Shown here piece after piece: positions 44,361 to 58,820 of a stretch of DNA of 64,000 nucleotides. Where the stretch lies: contig JAHITT010000001.1 in assembly GCA_018817715.1 (NCBI GenBank), positions 34,690 through 98,689 of the forward strand, given 5' to 3'. The position numbers were made by a program, and so were the translations under genes. The first letter of the stretch is position 1. The number at the start of each line of letters is the position of its first letter. This stretch comes from Patescibacteria group bacterium. GTDB taxonomy: Bacteria; Patescibacteriota; Patescibacteriia; Veblenbacterales; UBA10138. The notes below the pieces were generated by a model, which was given only the letters and a program-made list of their open reading frames with translations, had not been told where the DNA came from and searched no databases.

Positions 44361-44430
44361 TAAAGTTTACTATAACATAATTGCCTTGTCTTGTAAAACA
44401 AAAATCTTTTTTGTTTTATATCATTTATCC

Positions 44431-44638
44431 TGTCATTGCGAACTCTTTTTCCATTGTCATTGTGAACCACTCCCTCATGTCATTGCGAGGAGGTCGTAAG
44501 ACCAACGTGGCAATCTAGACTGCCGCGCTCATCCGCCAGCCGGCGGACATCGGCTCGCAGTGACAAACAACCCCATGTCATTCTGACCCCGCCGTCCGCC
44601 TTGGCCAGTTGGCAACTGGCGGAGCGGGAAAAAATCTT
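44431..44638. repeat. Cluster of GTCATT...TGAC REP/RPE-like palindromic elements
   Basis: TGTCATTGCGA (44431), TGTCATTGTGA (44455), a full element TGTCATTGCGAG...CTCGCAGTGACA (44478-44565), and TGTCATTCTGA (44576). Confidence 0.75.
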
Positions 44639-44663
44639 ATTCTAATAATCATCCCTAAATACC

Positions 44664-44692
44664 TTGACATTAAAGCGTTTTTAAGCTAATAT
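44664..44692 (+). promoter_or_regulatory. sigma70 promoter of the orphan gene
   Basis: TTGACA-N17-TAATAT. Confidence 0.6.
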
Positions 44693-44874
44693 TAACCATC
44701 AAAATGTAGCCACCGCTAATATAAATATAATATTTTGGCGAAATCCGCCGAAGTTTATATTACATTTTGTAAACAGTCAGTAACAAAAATAAATTAATTA
44801 ACTTATTAAATATAATCAAGATATTAACGAAGGCGGAATAAAAACAAAATCCAAAAAACAAAAAGGAGCTACCA

Positions 44875-45330
44875 ATGCATGACAGATACTATGTTAAAAG
44901 TTTGATCCAAAAATTTTTGGATCGAAAAAAACAAAATCCCCAAGCTGACGTAACAGATATTTTACAAGAAATGATTTACGAATACGCCTGGGAGCAACTA
45001 GAAATATCCACCATTCGGGCTACTAGTAAAAGTAAACACTGGATTATTCAAGGGCAAATAAAAGACCAGTTTGCCCGCGGCACTAATGGTAAAACAGTCA
45101 TTAATATTAAATTTGACTGGCTAAGGCAAAAAACTGAAAACGGTAGCAAGCCTATTAAGTTAAAAACTTTTCAATTAAAAGAATTGTATAAGTTTTCTTT
45201 AATTACTTACCCCGACCAGCCCAATCGCTTTAGTTTAGAAAAGCCAGCTTATCGCAACAAAAAAAATTCTAAAAATGGACTGTTTATCACTTTTATTCCC
45301 ACTGGTGACGAACAATTCATAAAAAATTAA
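44875..45330 (+). CDS. Orphan basic hypothetical protein
   Basis: 151 aa; SD AAAGGAG 6 nt before ATG. Confidence 0.7.
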   Translation: MHDRYYVKSLIQKFLDRKKQNPQADVTDILQEMIYEYAWEQLEISTIRATSKSKHWIIQGQIKDQFARGTNGKTVINIKFDWLRQKTENGSKPIKLKTFQLKELYKFSLITYPDQPNRFSLEKPAYRNKKNSKNGLFITFIPTGDEQFIKN

Positions 45331-45516
45331 ACTATTCACTAAATACATTTGATTACTAATAATACCTGCGGGGGAAAATAATTTTCTTTAAGGCGCGCTT
45401 TTTATTAAGCCGTCTTATTTTTTTACAACAATTAACCCCCACCCCCCTATTTTCACAGGAAAACAGGAAATTTTATTATCGCTATTACAATCTTAAGAAT
45501 GTAATTAATAAAACCA

Positions 45517-45556
45517 GGCAGATACTTCCATACTTGCGAGTATGGAAGTATCTGCC
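45517..45556. repeat. 40-bp palindrome, copy 1
   Basis: GGCAGATACTTCCATACT-TGCG-AGTATGGAAGTATCTGCC. Confidence 0.9.
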
Positions 45557-45589
45557 AAATAAATAATCTAATAAAAATTCTTCCATTAA

Positions 45590-46117
45590 TCACCTTACAC
45601 CTTTTAAATATTTTTCAAAGTCTTTGTTTAACTTCCCTTTAAGCTGTAAATTTTTTAAAACAACATATAATTTATCTTTCTGTTTTTTGTTAGCGGTAGC
45701 TATAATTTCTTTAATTAAAAGTTCTGGCCAATGATACATCGGATAAGCACGGCGTAACTTGGTCCAAGGAGAACCATCATCTTTTTTTAATAAATTTATC
45801 TCCTTATTTTTCGTTCTGTTAAAAATCATTCTAAAACCTTCACCAGCCTCTTGTAGCCAAATATTTATTCTAGAAATTGTCTGACTGCCCACTCTCAATT
45901 CACTCATAATCTCCTGATAACTAACACCCCTTAATAATAACTTGGCTATTTTTAAACGCTTAGCCAACATAGTTAGTTCGGAACGAGATAAAAGATCTTG
46001 AAATATCACGGCCATTTCCTTAAAACCATTAACAGTTGCCAAAGATCTAAAAAAATCCAGCAACAATTCTTGTTCGTCTTTTTTGGATAACTTATGATAA
46101 GGCGAAAATTTAGCCAT
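45590..46117 (-). CDS. TrpR-like (YerC/YecD) helix-turn-helix protein with a C-terminal extension
   Basis: F.DLLS.SE..MLAKRL.IA.LL..G.SY.EI..EL.V...TISRI; start refined to MAKFSPY (175 aa). Confidence 0.85.
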   Translation of the reverse strand: MAKFSPYHKLSKKDEQELLLDFFRSLATVNGFKEMAVIFQDLLSRSELTMLAKRLKIAKLLLRGVSYQEIMSELRVGSQTISRINIWLQEAGEGFRMIFNRTKNKEINLLKKDDGSPWTKLRRAYPMYHWPELLIKEIIATANKKQKDKLYVVLKNLQLKGKLNKDFEKYLKGVR

Positions 46118-46147
46118 ATTTTTAAATAAAAATAAATAAACATACCC

Positions 46148-46191
46148 GTCATTTTCTTCCACCCTGCGTCCGTTGGGTGGAAGAAAATGAC
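46148..46191. repeat. GTCATT...AATGAC hairpin upstream of the TrpR-like gene
   Basis: 17-bp arms GTCATTTTCTTCCACCC / GGGTGGAAGAAAATGAC. Confidence 0.75.
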
Positions 46192-46337
46192 AAAAAATAC
46201 CCAAAAAATAATGGGTAAATAACAGGCTTAAATATCACATAATTAGTCCCTCCAACTAATTAATATTAGATAATTAAACTTTACTACTTTTAACTAAGCT
46301 AGTAAACAAAGCTAATGAATGACCTGCTTGTCTTATC

Positions 46338-46377
46338 GGCAAATACTTCCATACTTGCGAGTATGGAAGTATTTGCC
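46338..46377. repeat. 40-bp palindrome, copy 2
   Basis: GGCAAATACTTCCATACT-TGCG-AGTATGGAAGTATTTGCC. Confidence 0.9.
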
Positions 46378-46414
46378 AAAGGGAATAGATAAAAAATAAA
46401 TTAATAACCAAACC

Positions 46415-46445
46415 AAAAGAGACTCGCTGACTGCGAGTCTCTTTT
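46415..46445. terminator. Intrinsic terminator after the 383-aa surface protein
   Basis: AAAAGAGACTCGC-TGACT-GCGAGTCTCTTTT. Confidence 0.8.
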
Positions 46446-46466
46446 TTTTAACTGTTTTAACAGTAA

Positions 46467-47618
46467 TTATCGGGTAGCTCCCGAATAAGCAATGGCGCGT
46501 ACGGCATCCCAATCACTGGCTGTGCTGGGCGCTTTGCCAAAAATAGCTTTAAAGGAATTAATAGCGACTTTTTCAGAATTCATATTCCTATTAGCGCTTC
46601 TAAGTCCGTAAGCCATAACAGTAATGGCCGCGTCGTCGTGGGCGTTAGTGCGCACGGCGTCTCTTAAGTAAATCTTTTTAAAAGTCGCAGCCACGGCTTT
46701 TTCTTGCGCGGCGTTCAAGGTACCAGGCCAGCGACCGTTGGCGATTTTTATTACATCTTGCCAATCGGTTTCGCTAGTTGGCACTCGGCCAAAAGCGGCT
46801 CTAAAACTATTCACTACGCCAGCCCTTTCCCCTGCCCCCAGGGCAAGAGTAGTAGCTGTACCATAAGTTACGAAGCTGGTAACCTGGGCCCTAGTAGCGG
46901 CTGGCGTGCTCGCCAGTACCACTCTGGCCACAATGGTAGAATCGTATTTTTGTTCTAAACCCAAGTTGCGCTGTAAACCCATTTCCCCAGCCATTTCACT
47001 AGCTGTTTTGCTTATCACATTAACAGCTTCTTGAGCCATAGTTTGCACCTGATTAGCCCGTTCGGTAATAGTTTCTGGTTCAGGTGTAGGAGTTGGAGTC
47101 GGCGTAGGGGTTGGTGTAGGAGTTGGAGTCGGCGTAGGGGTTGGTGTAGGAGTTGGAGTCGGCGTAGGGGTTGGTGTTGGTGCTACATAACTACTTCCAC
47201 CACCACTTCCTGAATTACAACTTCCAGTTAATGGAACTACTGCGTACGTACCACTACCCGAAGGTAACTCTACATAACTTGTCCCAGGTGTTGAATTAGC
47301 ATTACAGGTTACCCGATTACCACTCAAAGTAACTTCTATTGATTGAACAGAAGAATTACTAGAAACTACCTTAAAAGTATCTGTGGCATCAGGATTAGTT
47401 ACAGTAAAAGACCCACTATCAAAAGACCAACTTTCAGCCCTGGAACCACTAAGAATCAACATATCTGCTGTTCCTGAACCCAAAGTAACACTAGCCACTG
47501 TAATATCCCCATTAGCTATAAAATCCGTAGTAGCTGCTTTAACTGGTACAGCTACCAATAAAGCCAACGCCGTTATAACTAGCGCTTTCCAACCAAAACT
47601 TAAAAATTTGTTATACAT
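46467..47618 (-). CDS. Secreted surface protein with a Pro-Thr linker and a helical C-terminal domain
   Basis: Signal peptide (PVKA|A), Ser/Thr-rich beta domain, (PT)n linker, C-terminal GAGERAGV...IANGRWP...AYGLR...AIAYSGATR. Confidence 0.85.
   Translation of the reverse strand: MYNKFLSFGWKALVITALALLVAVPVKAATTDFIANGDITVASVTLGSGTADMLILSGSRAESWSFDSGSFTVTNPDATDTFKVVSSNSSVQSIEVTLSGNRVTCNANSTPGTSYVELPSGSGTYAVVPLTGSCNSGSGGGSSYVAPTPTPTPTPTPTPTPTPTPTPTPTPTPTPTPTPEPETITERANQVQTMAQEAVNVISKTASEMAGEMGLQRNLGLEQKYDSTIVARVVLASTPAATRAQVTSFVTYGTATTLALGAGERAGVVNSFRAAFGRVPTSETDWQDVIKIANGRWPGTLNAAQEKAVAATFKKIYLRDAVRTNAHDDAAITVMAYGLRSANRNMNSEKVAINSFKAIFGKAPSTASDWDAVRAIAYSGATR
47083..47172. repeat. Three exact 30-bp tandem repeats encoding the PT linker
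   Basis: GGTGTAGGAGTTGGAGTCGGCGTAGGGGTT x3. Confidence 0.95.
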
Positions 47619-47663
47619 AGGCGTGGTTTAATTAAATTATAAAAATATTAATTAAGCCAACGC

Positions 47664-48467
47664 TTAGTTAACTATAATATATTGCAAAGTCGCAGCATTA
47701 GCTGGAGCTGCTGAACACTTTACCTGGAAACTAGTAGAAGCTGTTCTGGTATATACACCGCAGACGGCAGCTGTCGCGTTAGCGCCAACACTTACACCTA
47801 TGTAAGAGTTAGCAGTTACGCTGGCAGCATCAGCCGTAATAGTAAAATCAGTAGCTGTAGCGTCCGGCACCCAGCCAAAAGCATCATCAGCCAAATTTCC
47901 TTTAACTACCTTAGTTATAGCCGTACCGCCACCCAAGGTAGTAGTACCAGTAACAGCTAAAGTACTGCCCAAGGTTACGGCACCAGCTATATGCCCGCTG
48001 TCAGCCACGTATAAACCTTGGTCCCAATTGGTACCTTCCACGTAAATACCGTATTCCGTAGAAGCGGTAGCTGCCGCTTGATCATTTACATGCAAACCAT
48101 ATACCGGGTTTGTTCCATCACCCGTAACATTAGTTAAATCTATATAAGCACCCTTGTAAGCATCGGTTGCCGTAACCGCGGCGGCGGCCGACAAAGCCAA
48201 CAAAGTGCCAGTAGTCATAGTAGCAGGTGGAACAATTGTCACGTTTCCATTGGTACCATTAACGGTAAATTGAGAAGTATCAACAGTAATACCTCCGTTA
48301 GCCGCCAAAGCACCAGTTAAAGTACTAGCACCAGTAACAGCTAAGGTACCACCTGTAGAAACATTGGTACCAATAGTCGTAGCGGCATAAGCGCTACCGG
48401 CTACTAAAGTAAGCACCAACATAGTTATTGGCACTAAGTAGCGCCTGAATTTATTAGGGTTAAACAT
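47664..48467 (-). CDS. Secreted Thr/Ala/Gly-rich surface protein (fibre/adhesin-like)
   Basis: Signal peptide (AYA|ATTIGTNV) and repeated TLAVTG.xTL.G beta motifs. Confidence 0.75.
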   Translation of the reverse strand: MFNPNKFRRYLVPITMLVLTLVAGSAYAATTIGTNVSTGGTLAVTGASTLTGALAANGGITVDTSQFTVNGTNGNVTIVPPATMTTGTLLALSAAAAVTATDAYKGAYIDLTNVTGDGTNPVYGLHVNDQAAATASTEYGIYVEGTNWDQGLYVADSGHIAGAVTLGSTLAVTGTTTLGGGTAITKVVKGNLADDAFGWVPDATATDFTITADAASVTANSYIGVSVGANATAAVCGVYTRTASTSFQVKCSAAPANAATLQYIIVN

Positions 48468-48860
48468 AAGCAAACAAATTTAATTATTAATGACAAATAT
48501 CAAATAACAAATCAATTGCTAAATGATTAATGTCAAATTTATAAAACTATTGTTATCAGCCAACCGGTTTAGGCAAATAACAAAATATTTTGTTTTTATT
48601 TTTTTACTGTTTGTTAACTAAACAGTCCGACCTTACCCTGTTTAATTTACTTACAGCGAATTTTTAAATTAAGGCTTATAAAAACAAAAAACCCAAAAAA
48701 TGGGTTCTAATAAACTACTGGGTCGCCAAAGCGATCCGCAAATATAATGCTATTTTGTAACCTAACTACAGGTTCAAAAAACATTTGACTTAGCCTTAAT
48801 TACTCCTTGGTTATTGCCTTCCCAATAACCACTAGCCTCCTTAGGCTATGATACTATTAT
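48468..48860 (-). promoter_or_regulatory. ~385-nt structured 5' leader with an upstream TATAAT
   Basis: ORF-free. Hairpins TAGCCT/AGGCTA, TGGTTATTG/CAATAACCA and long-range AATTAAGGCT/AGCCTTAATT; motifs shared with 53432-54219. Confidence 0.6.
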
Positions 48861-48940
48861 ATACAAAAGTCAAAACAACGCAACTAAAATAACTTTGTAA
48901 AACAAAAAGCTTTTACAAACCGCGAATAAAAAAGTATTCA

Positions 48941-49660
48941 CTACCTAATTTTTCCAGTTAATCTAGCTAATTCTTGACTGGCAATTTGGTCTTTATTATT
49001 TTTTGAAATTATAAAACGATACTCCAAAATAGCATCTTGGATACTGCCAATATTTTCCAAATACCTGGCAAAAGAATGATGTAAATCTAAATTATGATCC
49101 GTAGCTAAAAAAGATTTATTATACAATTCTCTTATTGCTCCTTGATTAGAACCTAATCTATATCTATTAAGCTCAATTAATTTAGACCAATTTATAACCA
49201 TAGTTGGCTCTATCTCTGTGGCTTTTTTTAAAGCTTGTTTAGCTAATTCATAGTCCCCAACTTGTTCATAAAGTGAACCTAAATTACTCCACGGGACAGA
49301 AATAAAAGGGTTTTGTTGAGAAGCCCATAAATAAGACTGCCTAGCCTTGTCTAATAATCCTAAACTTTCATAATTAATTCCTAATAATAAATACGACTCA
49401 GATAAATTAACTCCTTGCTGACTAGAAAAATCATTCAATTTTTTTTGCAGTGTTTTAATTTGTTCTGTTATACCTTGTCTTTCTTGTTCTGATAAATTAA
49501 CTTCTATATTATTTATACTGCTGTCAAAAATTAAATCTACTGAATTATTAAACGAACTTACTTTTACTTGTTCCGCTGGGTTAAAATAAATAAAAATAGC
49601 AGTAGTCAACACCAAACTGATTGATATTAATATAAAAATTTTAAATTTACTTTCCAACAT
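48941..49660 (-). CDS. Membrane-anchored TPR protein
   Basis: N-terminal TM helix; TPR patterns such as WSNLGSLY...GDY..A..A..KA..IEP. Confidence 0.85.
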   Translation of the reverse strand: MLESKFKIFILISISLVLTTAIFIYFNPAEQVKVSSFNNSVDLIFDSSINNIEVNLSEQERQGITEQIKTLQKKLNDFSSQQGVNLSESYLLLGINYESLGLLDKARQSYLWASQQNPFISVPWSNLGSLYEQVGDYELAKQALKKATEIEPTMVINWSKLIELNRYRLGSNQGAIRELYNKSFLATDHNLDLHHSFARYLENIGSIQDAILEYRFIISKNNKDQIASQELARLTGKIR

Positions 49661-49696
49661 ATATAAAATTATAGCAAATACAAAAATTTAAACAAT

Positions 49697-49728
49697 AAAA
49701 CAACCCCCACTTAAGTGGGGGTTGTTTT
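49697..49728. terminator. Intrinsic terminator of the large surface protein gene
   Basis: Perfect palindrome AAAACAACCCCCACTTAAGTGGGGGTTGTTTT. Confidence 0.85.
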
Positions 49729-49789
49729 GTCAAATTGTCGTTTTAACCTTTTTGGTAAAACAGCAAATGACTTTTAACTATTACTAACT

Positions 49790-52700
49790 TTATTGCTTGG
49801 ACATAGTACCCAAGGTTGGCTTACCATCAACGTACAACGAAGTAATCGTGTCGGCGAGGTCACCATCCTGAGTGCCATCATAACCCAAACCAGCTTCAGT
49901 TACGCTGTATTTGAGATCGCCCAAGCTAGCTACAGACAACGCAAAGCTGTCACCAGAAACAACGCTAGTAGCGGTGCTTAAGGTCACGGTCAAATAGCGG
50001 TAAGCTCCGCCATTAATCGCGGTAGAAGCAGTAAGAGCAGCGAAATCAAGAGTATCAGTAGCGCTAACTTCCAAAGAATTGGTAGTATAGTCGCCTGAAT
50101 TCTCACTTGAAGCATAAATAGTGTAACGAGCATCTGTACCAGTGTGGGTACCGCTGTCGGTGAATTTGACATTGGTCAAAGTAATTTGAGCATTGCCATT
50201 GTTCTGAACCTTAAAGCGGCCAATAGCCGTACCAGCAACCACAGTCTGGGTAACGCTGGAAGTAGGCTCAAAGGCAGATACCACTACACCAAACGGAACA
50301 ATGCGAGTAACAGCACCAGAGGCATTAAGATTACCACCGGTATAAGTACCAGGAGCAGCCGAGCTAGTAATACCCTTGGCTATCACATTGGTACCATCTA
50401 CATTCAAATGCATGTAGAAATCATTACCCAACTTGGCAATACCTTCGGAACCAATGTCAGCTTTGACATAAATAGTTACTGGGGTACCAGGTTGAATAGC
50501 GGCAGACAATAGATTGTCAGTCGCGGTCCAAGTGTTAGAACAGGCATTGCTAGAACAGGTTGTAAACTGGCTAGTTGTAGCAAACGGAGTGGCAGAGATT
50601 GTACCATTACCAATCTGTTCGTACAACTTAATGTTACGGACATTGTTCTGAGTCAAAGCTGTACCAGCAGCTTCTAACTTAAGAGTGGTAATCTTCTGAG
50701 CTTCATACTGGGTGGTAAACCTTACAGCCAAGAAGGTGGAATTGGCAGTGCCAACATTGAACACCTGGGCAACTGAAGGAGTAGCACCGGAACCAGTTAC
50801 TAAGGAACCAGTCAAAGTACCACCACTAACTAAGGTCATAGCCTGACCAGAGCCATTAATGGTGACATTAGAGGTACCAATAGTATTACCAGTGTCTTTA
50901 CCGTTAGCTGACACATGAGAAGTGGAGTTAACGTTAAAGGTATGAGTAGAAGTAGAACCAGCTGTACCAGCAATCCAATCACCTTTTAAGGTTAAGATTA
51001 CCGGAGTAGACTGCGTAACCAAAATTGGAGTGGTGAAATTGAAAGCTACAGTAGCAGCATTAGTGGAAGTAGAAGAAGAAGTCTGCAAAGAATTGCCTTG
51101 ACTGTCATACATGACGAGGTTAGCCACGTCAGTATAAGCAGCACCAGCACCCTTAGTATCGGTTACAGTCAAAGAAGTAACGCGAACAGATTCTCCAGAA
51201 TTTTGAGCATTTAACTCAAACTTAGCAAATTCCACATTGTTGGTGTTAAGAACCATTGAACCAGCTACCGGCGTAGACAAAGTGTTTACAGTAACGGCAG
51301 CGGCTTTAACAGAACGAGTGTTGCTATCAGTCGCAGTAATGGACGGATCAACAATATCGTTGGTAATTAACCTCTTAACAGAAGTGACATCAAAGTCATT
51401 AACGAAGTAAGCATCTGAACTGGTAGCACTAGAGCTAATGGAAGCAGATACAGTAATGTAGCTCATAACACCAGCCTTAATTATTGGGTAACTGGAAAGG
51501 CTTCTAGAAGAAGCGGTACCATTCACTGGGAAATTAGTGGTGTTGGCGGCGGCACTGTAAACAGTGTTGCCATCCACTTTGACATAGACAGTGCCAGTCA
51601 AAGCAATTGAGCTAGTGTCCTGATCCAAACCAAAACTGATAGCGCGCAATTCCATATCTTCGCCAGTAGACTTAATGTAGTACTTACCAATAACTACATC
51701 AGAAGCACCTGGGGTAACAGCATCAGACGGAGAGTCTGAAGCGCGACCAAAGATAGCGGAACCAGAACCGATAGTTACCTTGTTGTAATTGGTGGCATCA
51801 CCAATTGGGAAGGAAGTATCGTTACTGCCAGCACCTGGCAATAAACCAGCGCCACTGGATAAACCGCGAATATCCAAATCATAGTTTTCGTAAACTACAA
51901 ATTGAATAGTACGGCTAGCACCATCAATAATCTTAGTGCGGATAGTAAAGTCTTTAGTCTGACCTTTATCAATCAAGTAAGGATTGGTAGAAAGATCAAA
52001 CATAACATACTGACCAGAAGGCTGGGCAGTAGCTAAAACAGTGCCATCCTGAGAAACCAATTGAACATCTTTATAATCCGAAGAAGCGGAGGCATTACCA
52101 TTGTTCCACAAGTTCAAACCGTAAACTTTTACAGCTTCGTTGCTGGTAGTTTCGGCAATGCGGAACTTAGCAATATCCTGTGAGCTCTCTGAATCAACAT
52201 TCAAAGTAACGCCACTGGCGTTAATTGGTTGAGCATCCAAGGTGACAGTAGCCAAAGAGCTAGAACCATCTACGGTTGTCATAGTATTACCCATGGCTGG
52301 GAAAGTACCAGATACAGTAGCGGTAGAAGCTGTGCTTACGTCAGAAGCAGATTTGACAGAGAAGTCCAAGGTTCCGGAGTTAGCAGAACTGGACAAGTTG
52401 ATCTTAATAATAGCGAAAGTGGTAGAACCAGTAGACACTACGATAGGATCATTCACGAAGGTCAAAGTAGCTACACCGTCAGAACCCAAAGTGGTAACTA
52501 CGTTGCCATGGCGCTTGCCAGCAGCATCATAGACGGCCACACCAGTAATATTGGTGTTACCAGTATAACCACCCTTGGTTACTTTAAGTCCAGTCACACT
52601 GACTGGGCCATCATTACCAGCGGTGAAATTTAACTTCAACACAGCGTTATTGGCACTACCATCAGCCAAAGTGGCAGAAGCTGGAGTGTCGGAAGCCAAA

Positions 52701-53431
52701 GCTACAGACAAACCAGTACCCTGACCTGGAACATAAGATCCGGTAGAACTACCAGCTACGTTAGTAACTGTAGCTTCTTTGCCAGTCAAAGAAGTACCAT
52801 CAGAGTAAGTAACATCGGTAACAACTGCATTAGCAGTGTTTATCATGTTAGCAGCCAAAGCAGCATCAGAAGCGAAAGGCCTCTTTTTGCCATCTTCAAC
52901 CAAGTAATAAGTGGAAGAACCACTGTACTTAATCAAAGTACCGTTAACATGCATATCGGAAGAAATGGCGGAGCCAGTCTTGTAGTTAACAAAGAAAGCA
53001 TCCGACACATCCACGATCATTTTGTTCCAATTGGAACCGTATAACTTAAGGGCGCGAGCTTCGCTGTCAATACCATGCAAAGTGCCGCCGTGAGAGATAG
53101 CGTAGACTTTAGGGTCAGTCGTTATCTTAACGAGCTTGGTACCTGGACGAATAGTGACGTTGCCACCAATCGCATAGGTCTGAAGCTCAGAAGCAGGAAT
53201 AGTCTTCACACCCGAAAAGTCCTTATACCAGGACATGTAAGTAGCTTCGTTCGGGAAGACATACCTCTTAGAACCATCAAAGTAATAGACAGCGGAATTA
53301 CCAGCCATCTTAATGAGGTCGCCGGCTGAAGCCGCAGCGCTGACACCTAAAGGAGCCAAGCTAACGCCTACAGACCAGAGAACAGTCATTACTGTTACCC
53401 CGATAGTGAGGAATTTTTTCAAATTAGACAT
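49790..53431 (-). CDS. 1213-aa secreted S-layer-like major surface protein
   Basis: Signal peptide, N-terminal repeats (GDLIK...AVYY...KRYVFPN; GTKLVK...PKVY; GTLIK...YYL..GKKR), tandem Ser/Thr-rich beta-sandwich-like domains, strongly biased codons. Confidence 0.8.
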   Translation of the reverse strand: MSNLKKFLTIGVTVMTVLWSVGVSLAPLGVSAAASAGDLIKMAGNSAVYYFDGSKRYVFPNEATYMSWYKDFSGVKTIPASELQTYAIGGNVTIRPGTKLVKITTDPKVYAISHGGTLHGIDSEARALKLYGSNWNKMIVDVSDAFFVNYKTGSAISSDMHVNGTLIKYSGSSTYYLVEDGKKRPFASDAALAANMINTANAVVTDVTYSDGTSLTGKEATVTNVAGSSTGSYVPGQGTGLSVALASDTPASATLADGSANNAVLKLNFTAGNDGPVSVTGLKVTKGGYTGNTNITGVAVYDAAGKRHGNVVTTLGSDGVATLTFVNDPIVVSTGSTTFAIIKINLSSSANSGTLDFSVKSASDVSTASTATVSGTFPAMGNTMTTVDGSSSLATVTLDAQPINASGVTLNVDSESSQDIAKFRIAETTSNEAVKVYGLNLWNNGNASASSDYKDVQLVSQDGTVLATAQPSGQYVMFDLSTNPYLIDKGQTKDFTIRTKIIDGASRTIQFVVYENYDLDIRGLSSGAGLLPGAGSNDTSFPIGDATNYNKVTIGSGSAIFGRASDSPSDAVTPGASDVVIGKYYIKSTGEDMELRAISFGLDQDTSSIALTGTVYVKVDGNTVYSAAANTTNFPVNGTASSRSLSSYPIIKAGVMSYITVSASISSSATSSDAYFVNDFDVTSVKRLITNDIVDPSITATDSNTRSVKAAAVTVNTLSTPVAGSMVLNTNNVEFAKFELNAQNSGESVRVTSLTVTDTKGAGAAYTDVANLVMYDSQGNSLQTSSSTSTNAATVAFNFTTPILVTQSTPVILTLKGDWIAGTAGSTSTHTFNVNSTSHVSANGKDTGNTIGTSNVTINGSGQAMTLVSGGTLTGSLVTGSGATPSVAQVFNVGTANSTFLAVRFTTQYEAQKITTLKLEAAGTALTQNNVRNIKLYEQIGNGTISATPFATTSQFTTCSSNACSNTWTATDNLLSAAIQPGTPVTIYVKADIGSEGIAKLGNDFYMHLNVDGTNVIAKGITSSAAPGTYTGGNLNASGAVTRIVPFGVVVSAFEPTSSVTQTVVAGTAIGRFKVQNNGNAQITLTNVKFTDSGTHTGTDARYTIYASSENSGDYTTNSLEVSATDTLDFAALTASTAINGGAYRYLTVTLSTATSVVSGDSFALSVASLGDLKYSVTEAGLGYDGTQDGDLADTITSLYVDGKPTLGTMSKQ

Positions 53432-54219
53432 TTATATTAATCCTTTATGAATAAGAACAGTATTTATCTCTATTAACCTAATGTCATTCTGAACGTTAGT
53501 GAAGAATCTCATTGTTGCGATCCTTCCCCCACGGACGCGGGGTCAGGATGACGGGAATAATAAAGACCTAATCTATTTTCTTATTCAATTTTTAAGTTAT
53601 GGAACTCATCCTTGCCTTATCCCCTGTTTTAAATCAACATGGGGCGGCTCGACCTTTGCGCTACTTATTAGAATTTAAATTTTAATAAGTATACGAAGTA
53701 GGATTATCCGAACACGTGTTCTAAAAACAAATTAATAAATTAATATTAAGGTTCGATTACTAGTAGCAAGTTTTAGCTGTTAAAGCGTCTTTAATGTTAG
53801 TTATTCCTTAGCCGGCAGAGTAAAAGACATTTCAAGTCAAGCCGCCCATGGGTGGAAGAAGAGAAAGCAATATCAAATTTCCTTTTGCCCATTCGCCGAA
53901 GCGAAAAAAAAGAAAATCCATCTTTGCTAATCCCGTCCAACCTTGTGTCTTTAGAATCCACCAAAGGTGAACCTAAAGGACGGGTTAAACCCAGCCAGAC
54001 AAAAAAGTCTGTTTACCCACTGGAGGTTTAAAAAACATTTAACAGGCGCGGTGTAGCTTTTATCTTAACCACTAGTCCTTACCTATAATTAGTTTACAAT
54101 TTGTAAAAGAACTCGCGGGGAGTCACTAGACTCCGTCACCAAGGCAAATATATGTAAATATTGGCCGCAACGACAGAGAAATGACGATACTATTTTAATT
54201 TCAAATTACAAAGGTCAAA
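53432..54219 (-). promoter_or_regulatory. ~750-nt structured 5' leader / cis ncRNA
   Basis: ORF-free and GC-enriched. Nested stems CATGGGCGGCTTGAC/GTCGAGCCGCCCCATG, CCCGTCC/GGACGGG, GGAGTC/GACTCC and TGAATAAGAA/TTCTTATTCA; a cUUCGg tetraloop on the - strand. Confidence 0.65.
53483..53552. repeat. GTCATTCTGA...TCAGGATGAC REP-like element inside the leader
   Basis: Terminal inverted repeat with internal GAAGAATCTC/GATCCTTC arms. Confidence 0.75.
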
Positions 54220-54279
54220 TTTAAACCCTAAATCTTAAAATTTAAATCCTAAATAAATCCCAAATCACAATTTCCAAAC
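54197..54279. repeat. Heptamer-periodic arm 3' of the four-helix-bundle gene
   Basis: AAACCCT-AAATCTT-AAAATTT-AAATCCT-AAATAAA-TCCC-AAATCAC-AATTTCC-AAA. Confidence 0.75.
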
Positions 54280-54648
54280 TTACTTATCTTTTAACATCTC
54301 TTTGTTTTTAAGCTTAATTATTATGGAGTTAAAGATTAAGTTTAATTCCTTAGCTTCTTGCCATAATTTGCGAGCCGACTCCTTAACCTTTGGTTCGGCT
54401 TCCACCAACATTCTTAACCAGTGTTTAGTTTCACGAGCCTCTTTTTTACATATACCAAGCTTATGGATTAAATCTTTTTTAGACTCAGCATCATCTGCTT
54501 CACAAAAATTAGCTCCGATACTAGTAGCCGACCTTATTAATTGACTTATAATAGGTCTAATAACGGTATTATTGGACAAAGTTTTAACAAACTTTATAAC
54601 AGCTATACCAAAGGTAGCTGTCCTGTTTTCTAAATCATACCTTGGCAT
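54280..54648 (-). CDS. Four-helix-bundle protein (23S rRNA IVS protein / Avd-like family)
   Basis: DLE.R...F, QLIRSATSIGANF.EA, S.KD..HK..I.KKEA.ET..WL and E..EL..IF. Confidence 0.93.
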   Translation of the reverse strand: MPRYDLENRTATFGIAVIKFVKTLSNNTVIRPIISQLIRSATSIGANFCEADDAESKKDLIHKLGICKKEARETKHWLRMLVEAEPKVKESARKLWQEAKELNLIFNSIIIKLKNKEMLKDK

Positions 54649-54691
54649 TTTGGGTATTATTTAAGATTTAGAAATTAGGATTTGAGATTTT
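54649..54691. repeat. Heptamer-periodic arm 5' of the four-helix-bundle gene, inverted relative to 54197-54279
   Basis: - strand reads AAATCTC-AAATCCT-AATTTCT-AAATCTT-AAATAAT-ACCC-AAA directly into ATG. Confidence 0.75.
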
Positions 54692-54745
54692 ATTAAATTG
54701 TTAAACCCCTCCATAGGTTTATTTGTTAATTATTAATTTGTAATT

Positions 54746-55816
54746 TTATTTTAATTCCACTGTCTCACCTTCGGTTTTTAAGTCCTTAGTATTAGGCTGA
54801 TTAGTTAACGGCTCGGCGGGTTTTTCTGTTTGAACGCCTTCTACCTTACTTTCAGGCTGTTCTGTACTATCTATTACCTCTTCTGCTTTATTGGTTATTT
54901 CTTCACCTTCTTGAACTTTTTGCAAAGCTAAGGTGTAAAATTTCTTTTCTATTAATTCCCTAGCCTCATTTAAACTGGCCTTGGCTTGTTTAGAAGCTTC
55001 TTTAACTGGTACCACGGTTTTTTTGGATTCAATAACAACTTTTAAAGGCTTAGTCTGAGGCAATCTAATAATTCTACCGTCCACGCCGTCTAATTTAGCT
55101 TCGGCTTTAGTAATTTGTGATTGCAAACGATTAGCCAAAACCTGGCCGTCGTTCTCGGGGGCGCCAAAGTTTACTAATAAAGCTAAAGAACTGTCGGATA
55201 ATTTTTCCGTAACCTTAATAGCCGCCTTATAACCAGCTTCTTCGCCAACCTTATCTTTTAAATTAATTAATTGTTGAGCCAAGCGCTGGCTAGCCGAATC
55301 GTACAAAGCCACCAAATTAGCTTCTTGGCCGGCGGCCTGTAAACTAGCCTGAGCAAAACCAACACTAATATTATAGTCCCGTAACAAATTAGCTTGATCG
55401 GCTGGCTGGCCGGCCAATTTATTTATTTCTACCAAACGTTGATTAGCTAAATCCAAATAATATAAACCGCGGCTTAAAGGATTAGTTTGAAAAGACAACT
55501 GAACTTTTTCGGCTAAACGTTTAACACTGTATAAAGTTTGGCCGGGTAAGCTTTGGTTAGTAGCGCGAGCTACCGGCACTGTTCCACCAATTAACAAAAA
55601 TACAGCCGCTACAATCGGCGCCAAACGAAAAGGCGCTACCACTAAACGGGTTTCCTTGGCCCACAACCAAACGCGTTCCTTAAAACTATAAGCCGAAGTT
55701 TTTTCTTGAGCTACTGTATTAAGTAACGTTTGTCTTAATTCCTGACGCCACAAAACTGGAGCCTGCTTAAGGTTCTGTAGTTCTTTTATTTGATTTAACA
55801 AATGGCGATCAGACAT
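54746..55816 (-). CDS. DUF5667-like membrane protein, candidate anti-sigma factor
   Basis: Short cytoplasmic N-terminus, TM helix, SLPGQTLY.VKR..E and A..RL.E; directly downstream of the ECF sigma gene. Confidence 0.75.
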   Translation of the reverse strand: MSDRHLLNQIKELQNLKQAPVLWRQELRQTLLNTVAQEKTSAYSFKERVWLWAKETRLVVAPFRLAPIVAAVFLLIGGTVPVARATNQSLPGQTLYSVKRLAEKVQLSFQTNPLSRGLYYLDLANQRLVEINKLAGQPADQANLLRDYNISVGFAQASLQAAGQEANLVALYDSASQRLAQQLINLKDKVGEEAGYKAAIKVTEKLSDSSLALLVNFGAPENDGQVLANRLQSQITKAEAKLDGVDGRIIRLPQTKPLKVVIESKKTVVPVKEASKQAKASLNEARELIEKKFYTLALQKVQEGEEITNKAEEVIDSTEQPESKVEGVQTEKPAEPLTNQPNTKDLKTEGETVELK

Positions 55817-55824
55817 GATATTAA

Positions 55825-55917
55825 AAATCCTAAATCTTAAATCATAATTTCTAAAATAATTTTGGGAATTGTGCTTTGGAAATTATTTAGGGTTTAGAAA
55901 TTAGAAATTATGATTTT
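55825..55917. repeat. Heptamer-periodic palindrome without a gene in its loop
   Basis: AAATCCT-AAATCTT-AAATCAT-AATTTCT opposite ATTATTT-AGGGTTT-AGAAATT-AGAAATT-ATGATTT. Confidence 0.75.
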
Positions 55918-55918
55918 G

Positions 55919-56464
55919 CTACCCTATTATCTTCTTAAGTTCTTGCAAAGCCCGATGGATTATTACTCTGGTGGCGGCTGGAGTTTTGCCAATAATTTTA
56001 GCAATCTCCTTAGGCTTAAAACCTTCCACGTGAGCTAGCACTATAACCTCCTGCCAAGCTGGTTTTAATTTTTTAATAGCAACTTCTATTTCACTTAAGC
56101 TAACTTGTTGTTGAGGAGATAAGTAGCGACTACCACCCGCTTCGTCACTTACTTGAATAGCTTCATCCAAAGGCAATTCTTCTTGACGCTCGCGATAATA
56201 ATCTACTACTAAGTTACGAGCCATACGGTATAAAAAAGCTCGCAGATTATCCACTTGATTATTATTGTTGCGTAAATGCTGCCACAGTTTTAAAAATAAC
56301 TCGGCTACTATATCCTGGGCTTGCTCTTTGGTTTTTACCCGGAACAAGATAAAGCGGAACAAAGCGTCCACATACTTATCGTATACTCGGGCAAAAGCCT
56401 CTTCGTCACCGTGCCTTATTTTAAAAAGCAGAATTTCTTCTTCAATCCTGCGTGATACTTGCAT
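55919..56464 (-). CDS. ECF RNA polymerase sigma factor
   Basis: GD.EAF..Y, region 2 (AQDIV.E.FLK.W; FLYRMARN..VDYYR), region 4 HTH (KEIA.IIGK..A.RV..HRA). Confidence 0.95.
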   Translation of the reverse strand: MQVSRRIEEEILLFKIRHGDEEAFARVYDKYVDALFRFILFRVKTKEQAQDIVAELFLKLWQHLRNNNNQVDNLRAFLYRMARNLVVDYYRERQEELPLDEAIQVSDEAGGSRYLSPQQQVSLSEIEVAIKKLKPAWQEVIVLAHVEGFKPKEIAKIIGKTPAATRVIIHRALQELKKIIG

Positions 56465-56470
56465 ATATTA

Positions 56471-56498
56471 TAGACGTAATTTATTACCAAACGTTACA
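56471..56498 (-). promoter_or_regulatory. ECF-type autoregulatory promoter giving a leaderless mRNA
   Basis: TGTAAC-N16-CGTCTA, 6 nt before the ATG; matches the AAC/CGT pattern of SigW/SigM/SigX-type promoters. Confidence 0.7.
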
Positions 56499-56827
56499 GT
56501 TAATAAGCCGTACTGTACCCCAAAGCAAGCAAAAAAGCAAGCCTTTGGAATACAACTTTGTCTTAAGCTTTACAGCTACCTATAGTCTACAAATTATTAA
56601 TTTTCTTAATTATTATACCCATAAAATACCGAGTTCTTAAACCAATAGCTTAAGGTAGCAGACAAAGTTGTTATACAGGGCAAGCTTTAAAGGCTTTGCT
56701 AAATACTACGTTAACCTAACCTTAAGGTAACAGTTGTTAACATATAATTTGGTTTATTTTAGCTAATTAATCATAAAAATATGGATGAAGCACCCTTAAA
56801 AATTAAATTTTAAGCTTCTTTTGCAAA

Positions 56828-56928
56828 ATCCACCATAACCCCCTCCTTCGCTTTTAAGCTACGGAGAGTCCACCTTATTATTTATTTACAGTTATATAAT
56901 AACTGTAAAATATAAGGCGGAGGTGGAT
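56828..56928. repeat. Nested palindrome with a CTCCTTCGCT...AGCTACGGAG REP-like hairpin
   Basis: TCCACC/GGTGGA outer arms, plus CCTTAT/ATAAGG and TTTACAGTTAT/ATAACTGTAAA inner arms. Confidence 0.55.
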
Positions 56929-57037
56929 AACTTGCTCTTAAAGTATAGAATAGTCTATACTTTAATAAAGATATCTAAAGTCTATCATCCAACATTAATC
57001 CAAAATATTTATTGAATTAATATCTAAAAAAATAATC

Positions 57038-57307
57038 ATGACCACTTTACCAATTATACGAATATCCATTAGTGAAGCTGCTCGCCTTTTTGGCCTAAAT
57101 CAAAAAACCATTCGCCAAGCTATTAAACTGGGACACATAAATTATGTAGTCGTGCGTGGTCGTTATAAACTTAATTTTGCCAGTGTTTTAGAATGGTCCC
57201 AATCTTCCACTCGTCGCCGGAATATTATGGCCAAAAACGGTTTAGGGTCTTATGTTGAGCAATGGAAAATTACTAACCGCAAATACTCCCCTCGCCCGCC
57301 AGTCTAA
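57038..57307 (+). CDS. Excisionase-like helix-turn-helix protein
   Basis: SISEAARLFGLNQKTIRQAIK.G and V.RGRY.L. Confidence 0.8.
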   Translation: MTTLPIIRISISEAARLFGLNQKTIRQAIKLGHINYVVVRGRYKLNFASVLEWSQSSTRRRNIMAKNGLGSYVEQWKITNRKYSPRPPV

Positions 57308-57333
57308 ACCCCTAACCATCCCCTGTGTATAAC

Positions 57334-57361
57334 ATAGGCTAATTCGTACGAATTAGCCTAT
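57334..57361. repeat. 28-bp perfect loop-less palindrome
   Basis: ATAGGCTAATTCGT|ACGAATTAGCCTAT. Confidence 0.9.
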
Positions 57362-57487
57362 TAGTTTAATGTTAAAATATTGATAACCGCGTACACATAA
57401 GTAAAACCACTATATTAAGGAGGGATGGCTTTACTTCAACTACGCGGTTTTAAAGTACCAACTTTTTCTAATTACTTTAAAATAAAT

Positions 57488-57520
57488 AAGCAGTGTCCTA
57501 GGTGCAATAGAACACTGCTT
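57488..57520 (-). terminator. Terminator-like hairpin after the microprotein genes
   Basis: - strand AAGCAGTGTTCTA...TAGGACACTGCTT followed by ATTTATTTT. Confidence 0.6.
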
Positions 57521-57566
57521 TGCGGTACTGTTACTGTTGGCGCTCGGGGTTATTTATGCCCCGGAC

Positions 57567-57701
57567 TTAATTTTTAATACCGTCATGAACTTTACGACGG
57601 TTAATTAATTTTTGGTTTGGCTTGTTATTTCCGCTTTTCATAAAAACAAAAAGCCCAACCAATATAACCAAACCAATTACAAAATACCAATGCCAATCCA
57701 T
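57567..57701 (-). CDS. 44-aa single-TM microprotein (MDWHWYFVIGLVILVGLFVFMK...)
   Basis: Read by hand; SD-like AGGGGG upstream; TM helix followed by a basic tail. Confidence 0.55.
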   Translation of the reverse strand: MDWHWYFVIGLVILVGLFVFMKSGNNKPNQKLINRRKVHDGIKN

Positions 57702-57705
57702 AATA

Positions 57706-57879
57706 CTACCCCCTACTTTGTTTGTTTTCAAATAATATCATTTTTGCCAATAAACCAAACGGCACAACAATTGGTAAATAAGCTAACCAATAACCACCCA
57801 GTTTAAAACCAATAATTATACCAATCCACAAAAGAATACTGACAAAAAATAATATTTTTAATATTTTTAAATTAGCCAT
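57706..57879 (-). CDS. 57-aa membrane microprotein (MANLKILKILFFVSILLWIGII...)
   Basis: Read by hand; AGGTG upstream; two hydrophobic segments; promoter TTGACA-N17-TAAGGT at 57933-57905. Confidence 0.55.
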   Translation of the reverse strand: MANLKILKILFFVSILLWIGIIIGFKLGGYWLAYLPIVVPFGLLAKMILFENKQSRG

Positions 57880-58094
57880 TTTTACACCTAATTTATTTGC
57901 CCCTACCTTAAACCCAGCCTAAAAAAATGTCAAATAAAAAAGCGGCTATATTAATTATAAATACGCCACTTTGTTTAGTACTTTTTATTTTATTTTTAAC
58001 AAGCAATCGACCCGGAATTGGGGGGAGAAATAGGTCGATTGCCTGGCTAAGACAGGGGCCAGCCAGATATCCCCTGTTTTCTCTCCTTTTCCCG

Positions 58095-58262
58095 TTAGGA
58101 GGTTGTTCTGTCCCTTTTGGACTGCCAATGCCACTTCCCAAATAAAAATGAATACTTAATTGCCATAAAAATAACCAACAAATTAAAACAAGTTATTATG
58201 ACTAAATAAGCATCATAAGCAATGTCAGCCAAAGAATTAAAAGCTGATAATATTGATTCCAT
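58095..58262 (-). CDS. 55-aa single-TM microprotein (MESILSAFNSLADIAY...)
   Basis: TAATG overlap with the upstream ORF and an AAGGAAGG SD; this is the 3' part of track ORF 58095-58391. Confidence 0.6.
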   Translation of the reverse strand: MESILSAFNSLADIAYDAYLVIITCFNLLVIFMAIKYSFLFGKWHWQSKRDRTTS

Positions 58263-58420
58263 TACCTTCCTTTTATTTTTGATAATTTTTTTGCGTCCCA
58301 ATAAAAAAATGAAAATACAAAAAATACAGTAAAACAGGATATAACAATACAAGAAACCAAGAGAATAATAACGAAATAAATAATTTCCCAATTAATTAGG
58401 TTAATCCAATAATTCCACAT
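58262..58420 (-). CDS. 52-aa single-TM microprotein (MWNYWINLINWEIIYFVII...)
   Basis: Read by hand; GGAGG SD 6 nt before ATG. Confidence 0.6.
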   Translation of the reverse strand: MWNYWINLINWEIIYFVIILLVSCIVISCFTVFFVFSFFYWDAKKLSKIKGR

Positions 58421-58421
58421 T

Positions 58422-58565
58422 TTATTCCTCCGAACTATTTAGTTTATTTTTTAATTTATTATAATTTGGCAATTTAATTATTCTTACCAGGCCAATAATA
58501 ACTAAACACAGGGATAAAACTACTGTTGTAAATAGAACAATTTTAAAAGCTGGCTGAAAATTCAT
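58422..58565 (-). CDS. 47-aa single-TM microprotein (MNFQPAFKIVLFTTVVLSLCLVII...)
   Basis: Read by hand; AAAGGAG SD 7 nt before ATG. Confidence 0.6.
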   Translation of the reverse strand: MNFQPAFKIVLFTTVVLSLCLVIIGLVRIIKLPNYNKLKNKLNSSEE

Positions 58566-58622
58566 TCACATCTCCTTTTTGGGTTTGCGAGTTTTTAAAG
58601 TATTTTTTGTTTTAAGTACTTT

Positions 58623-58651
58623 ATAATATCCACAAAAAACGCATTTGTCAA
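58623..58651 (-). promoter_or_regulatory. sigma70 promoter of the microprotein operon
   Basis: TTGACA-N17-TATTAT. Confidence 0.65.
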
Positions 58652-58688
58652 TCCTTTTCAAGGGATAAACTTAAATATTATAAATAAA

Positions 58689-58720
58689 AATTCTATTTTT
58701 TGACGTCAAAAAATAGAATT
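58689..58720. repeat. 32-bp perfect loop-less palindrome
   Basis: AATTCTATTTTTTGAC|GTCAAAAAATAGAATT. Confidence 0.9.
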
Positions 58721-58820
58721 CAAAGTAACTATAAGGAATTATAGTGATACCTCTTTAACCCACTCCTTAATAAGTAGAATATACCCTCAAGTTCAAAAAA
58801 CTTCAATACATCGACAAATA

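Follow-up and report, generated by a model that had tools for sequence, protein, structure and literature searches.

To our knowledge, ribosome recruitment in bacteria is explained by the 3′ end of 16S rRNA together with protein bS1, and we know of no other pairing between mRNA and 16S rRNA that has evolutionary proof. Here we describe the 5′ leader of a gene for a 1213-residue secreted, S-layer-like surface protein of a Patescibacteria group bacterium, a folded RNA carrying a short word that very likely pairs with the apical loop of helix 26 (h26) of 16S rRNA. The gene lies on the minus strand of a 64,000-nucleotide (nt) stretch of DNA, called the window (GenBank assembly GCA_018817715.1, contig JAHITT010000001.1, positions 34,690 to 98,689 of the forward strand), and coordinates refer to the window unless a contig is named. 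A long leader before an abundant surface gene also occurs in the Lactobacillus slpA S-layer mRNA, where the 5′ untranslated region stabilises the message and is described as simple stem-loops.

Pairing of mRNA with helix 26 of 18S rRNA is known for the internal ribosome entry site (IRES) of hepatitis C virus (HCV) and for Gtx, as set out in part of a published account (PMC6316650). In portions of two other reports h26 is described as variable and surface-exposed (PMC11800381), as adjoining the 16S 3′ end where bS1 sits (PMC10123108), and as located at the mRNA exit (PMC10123108, PMC11800381). The main text of a survey of leader-trailer helices reports a trailer element that is important for 16S maturation and contains neither h26, helix 26 nor Patescibacteria (PMC11404451). 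The available portion of a study on ribosome biogenesis in the candidate phyla radiation does not mention h26 either (PMC12641178). No description of pairing between h26 and a word of this kind was found in the open-access literature searched, supplements aside.

An original prediction, made from the letters of the window, held that this leader and that of a second secreted-protein gene (the 47664 gene, encoding 267 residues) share a tertiary core of four motifs, i to iv, with a long-range UGUUU/AAACA pairing. Orthologous leaders point to a different core and a different shared word.

Structure and conservation of the leader RNA

Orthologous leaders were obtained from 16 of the 21 genomes of the family (17 leaders) and from 120 metagenome matches to block B, 4 of which had the block order, giving a set of 21; the permutation tests on helices used 20 leaders, with one truncated leader left out. 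Both leaders of the original prediction fold better than shuffled sequence, with z-scores of −7.3 for the surface gene and −5.9 for the 47664 gene. The parts of the surface-gene leader are the following, from the 5′ end on.

53432..54180, minus strand: structured leader or intercistronic RNA, full extent with putative 5′ end; z −7.3, block order kept in 21 leaders
54119..54134, minus strand: hairpin P1 (GGRGUC, loop of 4-5 nt, GACYC); A-U/G-C covariation 6:14, 0/20000 permutations
54102..54114, minus strand: boxA-like word (GYUCUUU core) after P1, in 17/20 leaders
54002..54100, minus strand: 5′ arm of helix Pa with a long irregular extension, holding motifs ii (54081-54066) and iii (54043-54024)
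53990..54001, minus strand: block A (URUCUGGCUGGG), 5′ strands of Pb and Pc
53837..53852, minus strand: block B (CCCAUGGGCGGCUUGA), 3′ strand of Pc, proposed 5′ strand of Pe and strand of Px
53715..53836, minus strand: 3′ arm of Pa and its extension
53699..53712, minus strand: block C (GGAUA; 3′ strand of Pb) and 5′ strand of Pd
53649..53657, minus strand: block D, the h26-complementary word AAAGGUCGA; can form 6 bp with the h26 loop of this genome, covariation in family f156
53614..53648, minus strand: hairpin Pf, a predicted fold with AAACA of motif iv in its stem; sequence varies among orthologs
53601..53613, minus strand: 3′ strand of Pd and block E (RAGYUCC; proposed 3′ strand of Pe)
53448..53587, minus strand: long last hairpin, which stops directly upstream of the AAAGGA ribosome-binding site and here contains a palindromic repeat insertion

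The same order, P1 with the boxA-like word followed by A, B, C, D and E, was found in 21/21 leaders, and block E is followed by about 13 unpaired bases, the final hairpin and an AAGGA site. A similar layout of the final hairpin was predicted in the 20 leaders folded. The consensus reads URUCUGGC and UGGG for block A, CCCAUGGGCGGCUUGA for B, GGAUA for C, AAAGGUCGR for D and AGYUCC for E. Within block B, GGGCGGCUUGA was invariant in all 21 leaders, and exact matches to the block were restricted to this family among 401 genomes of the class. The spacers between blocks measure about 20 to 270 nt and frequently contain palindromic repeat insertions; compact leaders such as L047 and L051 have a length of about 320 nt. 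These repeats sit in peripheral loops and in the final hairpin (53480-53560, and in ortholog leaders) and leave the core untouched. Block B itself contains a palindrome, CCAUGG (53852-53846), which reads CCUAGG in one ortholog (L044); it could be a dimer site, although this is one event only.

When each strand was paired with its own or with swapped partners, P1, Pa and Pd each gave 0/20000 permutations, Pb reached p=0.026, and the values for two control pairings were p=0.056 and 0.58. The strands of Pc, Pe and Px scarcely vary, so that this test says nothing about these three helices. Since related genomes are not independent, the helix p-values for the leader family are overstated. For the extension of Pa, the cognate duplex reached −46.7 kcal/mol versus −24.7 kcal/mol for non-cognate strands, with the own partner being best in 13/20 cases (control p=0.35). 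Helix Pd was 97.1% paired with two-sided changes at 4/6 pairs in 17 sequences, and RNAalifold recovered it independently; the same program proposes local GGA/UCC pairing in place of Pb and Pe. A model of 28 pairs was 91.4% paired in 10 sequences, versus 46-57% when slid. Judged from this covariation in P1, Pa with its extension, and Pd, the surface-gene leader is a conserved folded RNA. Complementarity and one-sided changes suggest Pb and Pe as further helices; Pa would cross Pb and both would cross Pe, which predicts a multiply pseudoknotted core. In this family UUGAY of block B is a possible partner for the word of block D. Px has near-invariant strands and would be another crossing helix.

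A search with Rfam 15, which includes riboswitches, raiA, ROOL, GOLLD, OLE and group I and II introns, gave no match in the window at the gathering threshold, and at E<=10 there was nothing relevant in 48400-54400 or in 10 ortholog loci, in agreement with the original prediction, which had recognised no known riboswitch. RNase P RNA was discarded as a candidate, the genuine copy being located elsewhere (C2:52687-53078, 236.7 bits, RF00010), as was the raiA motif, which gave no model match and no significant pairing of 5′ and 3′ flanks. Outside the family, the block order was found at 0/22 block B matches in viral contigs and at 0/30 one-mismatch block B loci in other genomes of the class; blocks A and B are missing from the paralogous surface genes of the family itself. 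A covariance model of the C-E domain matched 4/150 genomes of the class, all from this family, and gave no match in 4 family genomes where the full ortholog start was not found. By these sequence comparisons the leader core is an uncatalogued structured RNA family.

An RNA of this kind might be a ligand-sensing riboswitch or a ribozyme, the word being merely its output or a passenger. About 40 near-invariant nt in five blocks, crossing helices, freely accepted peripheral insertions and the two ways in which blocks C and E could pair would suit such a function. Moreover, the strand order Pb, Pc, Pe, Pb′, Pd, Pe′ would fit that of the group I core (P3, P4-P6, P7, P3′, P8, P7′), with Pe being near-invariant and its covariation uninformative. 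However, the RNA has no Rfam match, is confined to one family, usually in one copy per genome and before one gene, and suggests no obvious ligand. RNA contigs, none of which span the leader, contained no splice joint, and no interrupted gene was found. We consider this explanation quite unlikely.

The block D word and helix 26

The apical loop of h26 in the 16S rRNA of this genome is UAUCGACC. UCGACC was present in 40/42 parsed 16S loci of the class, and the remaining two bases of the loop vary. Loops of a similar kind also exist in Chloroflexota, Cyanobacteria and Negativicutes. One of the two misses (genome G013, contig C62, locus L379; trailer not parsed) has a type of h26 unlike all relatives and is possibly mis-binned or a contaminant.

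The complementary word is more widespread than the leader core. Homologs of the surface protein occur in 137 genomes, and of 25 loci examined from other families, 24 had AGGUCG within 600 nt upstream of the surface gene, in leaders that are otherwise unrelated to one another. In the last 250 nt of these 25 loci GGUCGR was found in 21 and GACCGR in 1. The sixth base of the word is mostly A or G, compatible with pairing to U. In simple leaders the start codon follows the word at a distance of 27-47 nt; in structured leaders it lies 80-450 nt upstream, across hairpins. Some leaders of other families (L276, L277, L291, L294) have the h26 word twice, with a hairpin after each copy. A conventional Shine-Dalgarno role for the word was discarded: the 16S 3′ end is of the canonical CCUCC type, and the word matches h26 and sits further upstream.

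In this genome the word also precedes an RRM gene and a likely KH-protein gene, the latter name being our reading of its sequence. Several of the word-carrying genes encode secreted proteins and some encode cytoplasmic ones. In RRM leaders (G000 C1:194153-194243; L439-L468, L589-L597) a YYUAC-like word often follows a few bases after the h26 word.

Covariation across lineages

Variation of the loop was followed in a phylum sample of 141 genomes, of which 86 had a 16S anchor and 106 an RRM gene; 57 of the 16S loci and 63 of the RRM loci were fetched. In family f156 the h26 loop was UCGGUC in 6/6 genomes. Surface genes of f156, found via the word and the protein body, are homologous to the window gene (E 4.6e-22 and 8.5e-11), also with a DUF5667-like gene upstream (E 3.8e-16). 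The leaders of the full-length orthologs had GGACCGA in 6/6 cases (5 genomes), and four weaker f156 matches, which are paralogs or lie at contig ends, had no word. With GACCGA facing UCGGUC, two pairs are replaced in a compensatory manner, one A-U by G-C and one C-G by U-A. RRM leaders of f156 had GACCG in 7/9 cases and the wobble-compatible GAUCG in 2/9, about where other lineages have GGUCG; outside f156 the counts for RRM leaders were 0/58 for GACCG and 13/58 for GGUCG. In a further lineage, G412, the loop reads UUCUACC and the RRM leader contains GGUAGAA. A 1417-residue protein of G412 with GGUAGA upstream has no detectable homology to the surface protein and was not counted. Queries with the N-terminal part of the surface protein gave no match in five variant-loop genomes. 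At least five pairs to the canonical loop were possible in 8/19 RRM leaders from genomes with that loop versus 1/19 with another h26 (p=0.019). Lineages lacking an h26 loop of 8 nt (among them G440, G461, G501, G516, G532 and G535) tend to have a strong canonical Shine-Dalgarno sequence and no h26 word before the RRM gene.

One alternative takes the word as the site of an RRM or KH RNA-binding protein, which would autoregulate and, as the cell lacks the signal recognition particle (SRP), escort the messages for exported proteins to the membrane, the match to h26 arising indirectly through the trailer of pre-16S rRNA. The genes that follow the word, among them the RRM and likely KH genes and several for secreted proteins, fit this idea, and SRP54/Ffh was not found in the 99.9% complete genome. 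Yet the specificity of such a protein would have to shift exactly to the complement of the loop in f156 and again in G412, the A/G and C/U variation obeys wobble rules, and the word precedes genes for cytoplasmic proteins too. A protein site is, in our view, very unlikely.

The same word was found in the pre-16S trailer. Within 150 nt downstream of the 16S 3′ end GGUCG was present in 24/29 genomes with the canonical loop versus 2/16 others, 22 loci having no parsable trailer. The complement of the variant loop was present in the trailers of f156 (4/4, or 5/6 with an additional count), G443, G429, G432 and G469, and the trailer of G539 matched at 5/6 positions. In the genome of the window the trailer complement lies about 80 nt after the 16S 3′ end (G000 C6, L402). 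Pairing of the trailer with h26 is thus supported by five variant lineages and pairing of the mRNA leader by two, and therefore covariation backs both. With complementarity and compensatory change both found, it is very likely that the word pairs with the apical loop of h26.

The trailer also gives weight to the view that the contact serves processing or feedback and not recruitment. The leader would then mimic pre-16S rRNA with its boxA-like word, long stems and h26 word, and would be cut from the RNA of the sigma-factor operon, be stabilised, or be held untranslated depending on how much mature 30S is available. The strongest covariation is indeed that of the trailer, and in several relatives the leader is intercistronic. 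In addition, the core of the boxA-like word, a label which we take over from E. coli, is also present in the 16S leader of this genome and of 6/9 relatives; as in the rRNA leader, the word stands next to a hairpin. A boxA acting against Rho is unlikely here because Rho was not found in the 99.9% complete genome. Against processing, the word of simple leaders lies at −27 to −47, where mRNA leaves the 30S subunit, and the boxA-like word occurs in 0/25 surface-gene leaders of other families. We regard processing or feedback as an unlikely main function, and prefer recruitment of the 30S subunit.

Proposed role of the word

We propose that GGUCGA of the surface-gene leader probably base-pairs with the h26 loop of 16S rRNA and docks the 30S subunit, as a second contact of the Shine-Dalgarno-like or standby kind; it is by this pairing, we infer, that the word recruits ribosomes. 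A role in initiation had been among the options of the original prediction and is in line with this proposal. The word and the h26 loop of a free 30S subunit would pair, and the subunit would be held beside the start region. The hairpins between word and start codon would shorten the path to the AAGGA site and bring the word to about −27 to −47. Docking would raise translation of a very abundant exported protein, and the 3′ trailer of pre-16S rRNA would hold the same loop in cis until the subunit matures. The family core would fold co-transcriptionally, perhaps with Nus factors at the boxA-like word, and by way of the alternative pairing Px could expose or mask the h26 word. More tentatively, the h26 loop of Patescibacteria may be a second anti-Shine-Dalgarno that is plugged by the trailer until the subunit matures and to which a few very abundant mRNAs, chiefly that of the surface protein, dock by means of IRES-like folded leaders, with the multi-pseudoknot core of this family acting as a gate that ties coat synthesis to the supply of mature 30S subunits.

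Several observations weigh against docking. The complement of the own loop was not enriched genome-wide at −60..−18 in any of 6 genomes, so the h26 word is a signal of few genes at most; over 250 nt the sense/antisense counts were 16/6 in this genome and 6/0, 3/1, 13/6, 4/3 and 3/1 in the others. Only 7/19 RRM leaders from canonical-loop genomes had GGUCG, and the RRM leaders of G443, G464 and G432 showed no match to their own variant loops. In the family itself the 6-mer is broken in 5/21 leaders (GGCCGA twice, CGUCGA twice, AGUCGA once), in one case in a genome with the canonical loop (G016). Covariation on the mRNA side comes from one lineage, with two pairs and two genes, and from the RRM gene of G412, and related genomes are non-independent samples. 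Equilibrium folding left the GG of the word partly paired (unpaired probability 0.23-0.35), and the leaders also hold an ordinary AAGGA site. Contigs from RNA run X4 cover the surface-gene coding region and two other genes, not the leader. In RNA run X6 two short pieces from relatives match blocks B and D-E; for these data read depth cannot rank genes, and carry-over of DNA is possible.

Comparison of the two leaders

The leader of the 47664 gene contains two features of interest.

48770..48874, minus strand: motifs i-iii in the leader of the 47664 gene, private to this genome
48607..48656, minus strand: hairpin with AAGGUCG (48634-48628) in a 12-nt loop, conserved in the ortholog of the same genus, where one pair differs in a compensatory way; two sequences only

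The eight motif strings of the original prediction were all located where it had placed them. Motifs ii and iii occur only twice each in the 872-kb genome at <=1 mismatch, and motif iv has two exact copies. Compared with shuffled sequence the result was mixed, with a borderline to modest resemblance. In gapped local alignment 43/1000 shuffles reached the score of the pair of leaders, and more than 20 other intergenic regions outscored the pair when aligned to one of the two. The 18/20 window of motif iii arose in 11/1500 double shuffles and the chain of motifs ii and iii in 1/1500, with a statistic that was picked after the match was known.

The orthologous leaders decided the matter. Motifs i, ii and iii were present in 1/21 of them and motif iv in 2/21; the absence of the motifs from orthologs refutes a shared core of this composition. 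The supposedly invariant UGUUU loop was likewise seen in 1/21 leaders, that of this genome only. Motif i, called promoter-proximal in the original prediction, is no conserved promoter: in several relatives the distance from the end of the upstream gene to the first hairpin is about 100 nt or less. In the same-genus ortholog of the 47664 gene the leader sequence is common only downstream of about 48656, and motifs i-iii are thus lacking there. This ortholog has AAAUAG/CUAUUU in place of AAACAG/CUGUUU, a compensatory change that reveals pairing of AAACA in the 47664 leader with the neighbouring strand 48625-48618. In the surface-gene leader AAACA is predicted to lie in a local hairpin (53648-53614), and motifs ii and iii are predicted to pair, as the 5′ side of a long-range helix, with 53798-53760. 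The proposed long-range UGUUU/AAACA pairing is therefore contradicted by the orthologs, with AAACA pairing locally. Nor is there a second copy of the core in the 47664 leader: the covariance model gave one significant match in 44000-60000, at 53589-53719. Although the four motifs are present and collinear in both leaders, a common tertiary core built from them with the long-range pair is extremely improbable. The wider notion of a structured RNA not described before, in which a conserved core is surrounded by a periphery that can expand, survives for the surface-gene leader and fails for that of the 47664 gene.

What both leaders truly have in common is AAGGUCG, which motif iv merely clips in the 47664 leader. 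Lacking the core, this leader would use the word alone, displayed in the hairpin loop. Motifs i-iii upstream of the 267-residue gene are possibly a decayed local copy of the 5′ part of the surface-gene leader, or a chance match.

Other interpretations of the motifs were discarded. For the pattern of motif iii in 61 genomes, 30 loci were fetched, and the flanking motifs were found only at that of this genome. Other matches to AAACAGGG-TAAG in the genome are coding or unrelated. Short upstream open reading frames at motifs ii and iii (10-25 codons) are unconserved, like these motifs themselves. A TrpR-like operator, suggested by CTAG in motif ii and a YerC/YecD gene nearby, was dropped, motif ii being unconserved.

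Genomic context

The genome of 872 kb is 99.9% complete, and the genomes closest to it bear the label Patescibacteria group or Candidatus Kerfeldbacteria. Along the minus strand the genes for an extracytoplasmic function (ECF) sigma factor, a DUF5667 protein, a four-helix-bundle protein and the 1213-residue secreted protein follow each other, with the 267-residue secreted protein encoded later. DUF5667-like genes upstream of the surface gene are shared with f156.

54746..56464, minus strand: genes for the ECF sigma factor and the DUF5667 protein, upstream of the surface-gene leader
49790..53431, minus strand: gene for the 1213-residue secreted surface (S-layer-like) protein; homologs in 137/251 genomes of the class
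47664..48467, minus strand: gene for the 267-residue secreted protein, which matches no known family

The 1213-residue protein matched no named family in Pfam, NCBIfam, PDB or a protein atlas. PF01471 or PF00395 is present in its relatives, one of which has the name S-layer domain-containing protein. As the body of the protein is common to proteins with peptidoglycan-binding or S-layer homology domains and a family match of its own is absent, we use S-layer-like as a presumptive label. In this genome and two relatives the PF05635 four-helix-bundle gene (54280-54648), with A/T-rich flanking repeats, is inserted between the DUF5667 gene and the leader; other relatives lack it. Downstream of the 267-residue gene are a YerC/YecD TrpR-like gene and a gene for a secreted protein with a long Pro-Thr repeat (45590-46204, 46467-47618). 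Elsewhere in the genome a 399-residue protein with four S1 domains is likely bS1, and a putative nusB gene is present. ARAGORN found no transfer-messenger RNA in the 99.9% complete genome. An independent DNA run spans 47391-49026 and 52015-54081 with zero differences; this agreement excludes an assembly artefact over these segments.

Relation to known systems

The natural compensatory changes point to a second rRNA contact in a large phylum, which is common to pre-rRNA and to the message of what is likely the major surface protein. Trailer-h26 pairing is a candidate step in 16S 3′ and 30S maturation, the contact could offer a second handle for orthogonal ribosomes, and the leader core is a new structured RNA family to probe. 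An mRNA element pairing with h26 may have been reported in Dehalococcoidia; no paper with both terms was found in the open-access literature searched. If such a report exists, the novelty shrinks to a new lineage and context.

Compared with the Shine-Dalgarno interaction and 30S standby binding, the partner is here the apical loop of h26 and not the 16S 3′ end, only few genes are concerned, and the pre-16S trailer also has the word. A parallel in mechanism would be subdomain IIId of the HCV IRES and the Gtx and FGF2 elements, in which a structured leader likewise pairs with helix 26 of the small subunit to aid initiation. Those systems are eukaryotic or viral with contacts of 3 or 9 nt, whereas the present one is bacterial, with 5-7 nt and natural covariation.

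The small invariant pseudoknotted core with variable periphery recalls the raiA motif (described in part of PMC12968392), the group I core and RNase P RNA. Unlike in raiA there is no P1 closing both ends, unlike in group I introns there is no exon context, and no covariance model matched. The leader resembles those of rRNA operons in its boxA-like word after a hairpin and in its long irregular stems; here, however, the trailer would pair with a loop that belongs to mature 16S rRNA, and an mRNA has the same word. As in slpA, a long structured leader precedes an abundant surface gene, in this case with near-invariant blocks, predicted crossing helices and a word complementary to rRNA.

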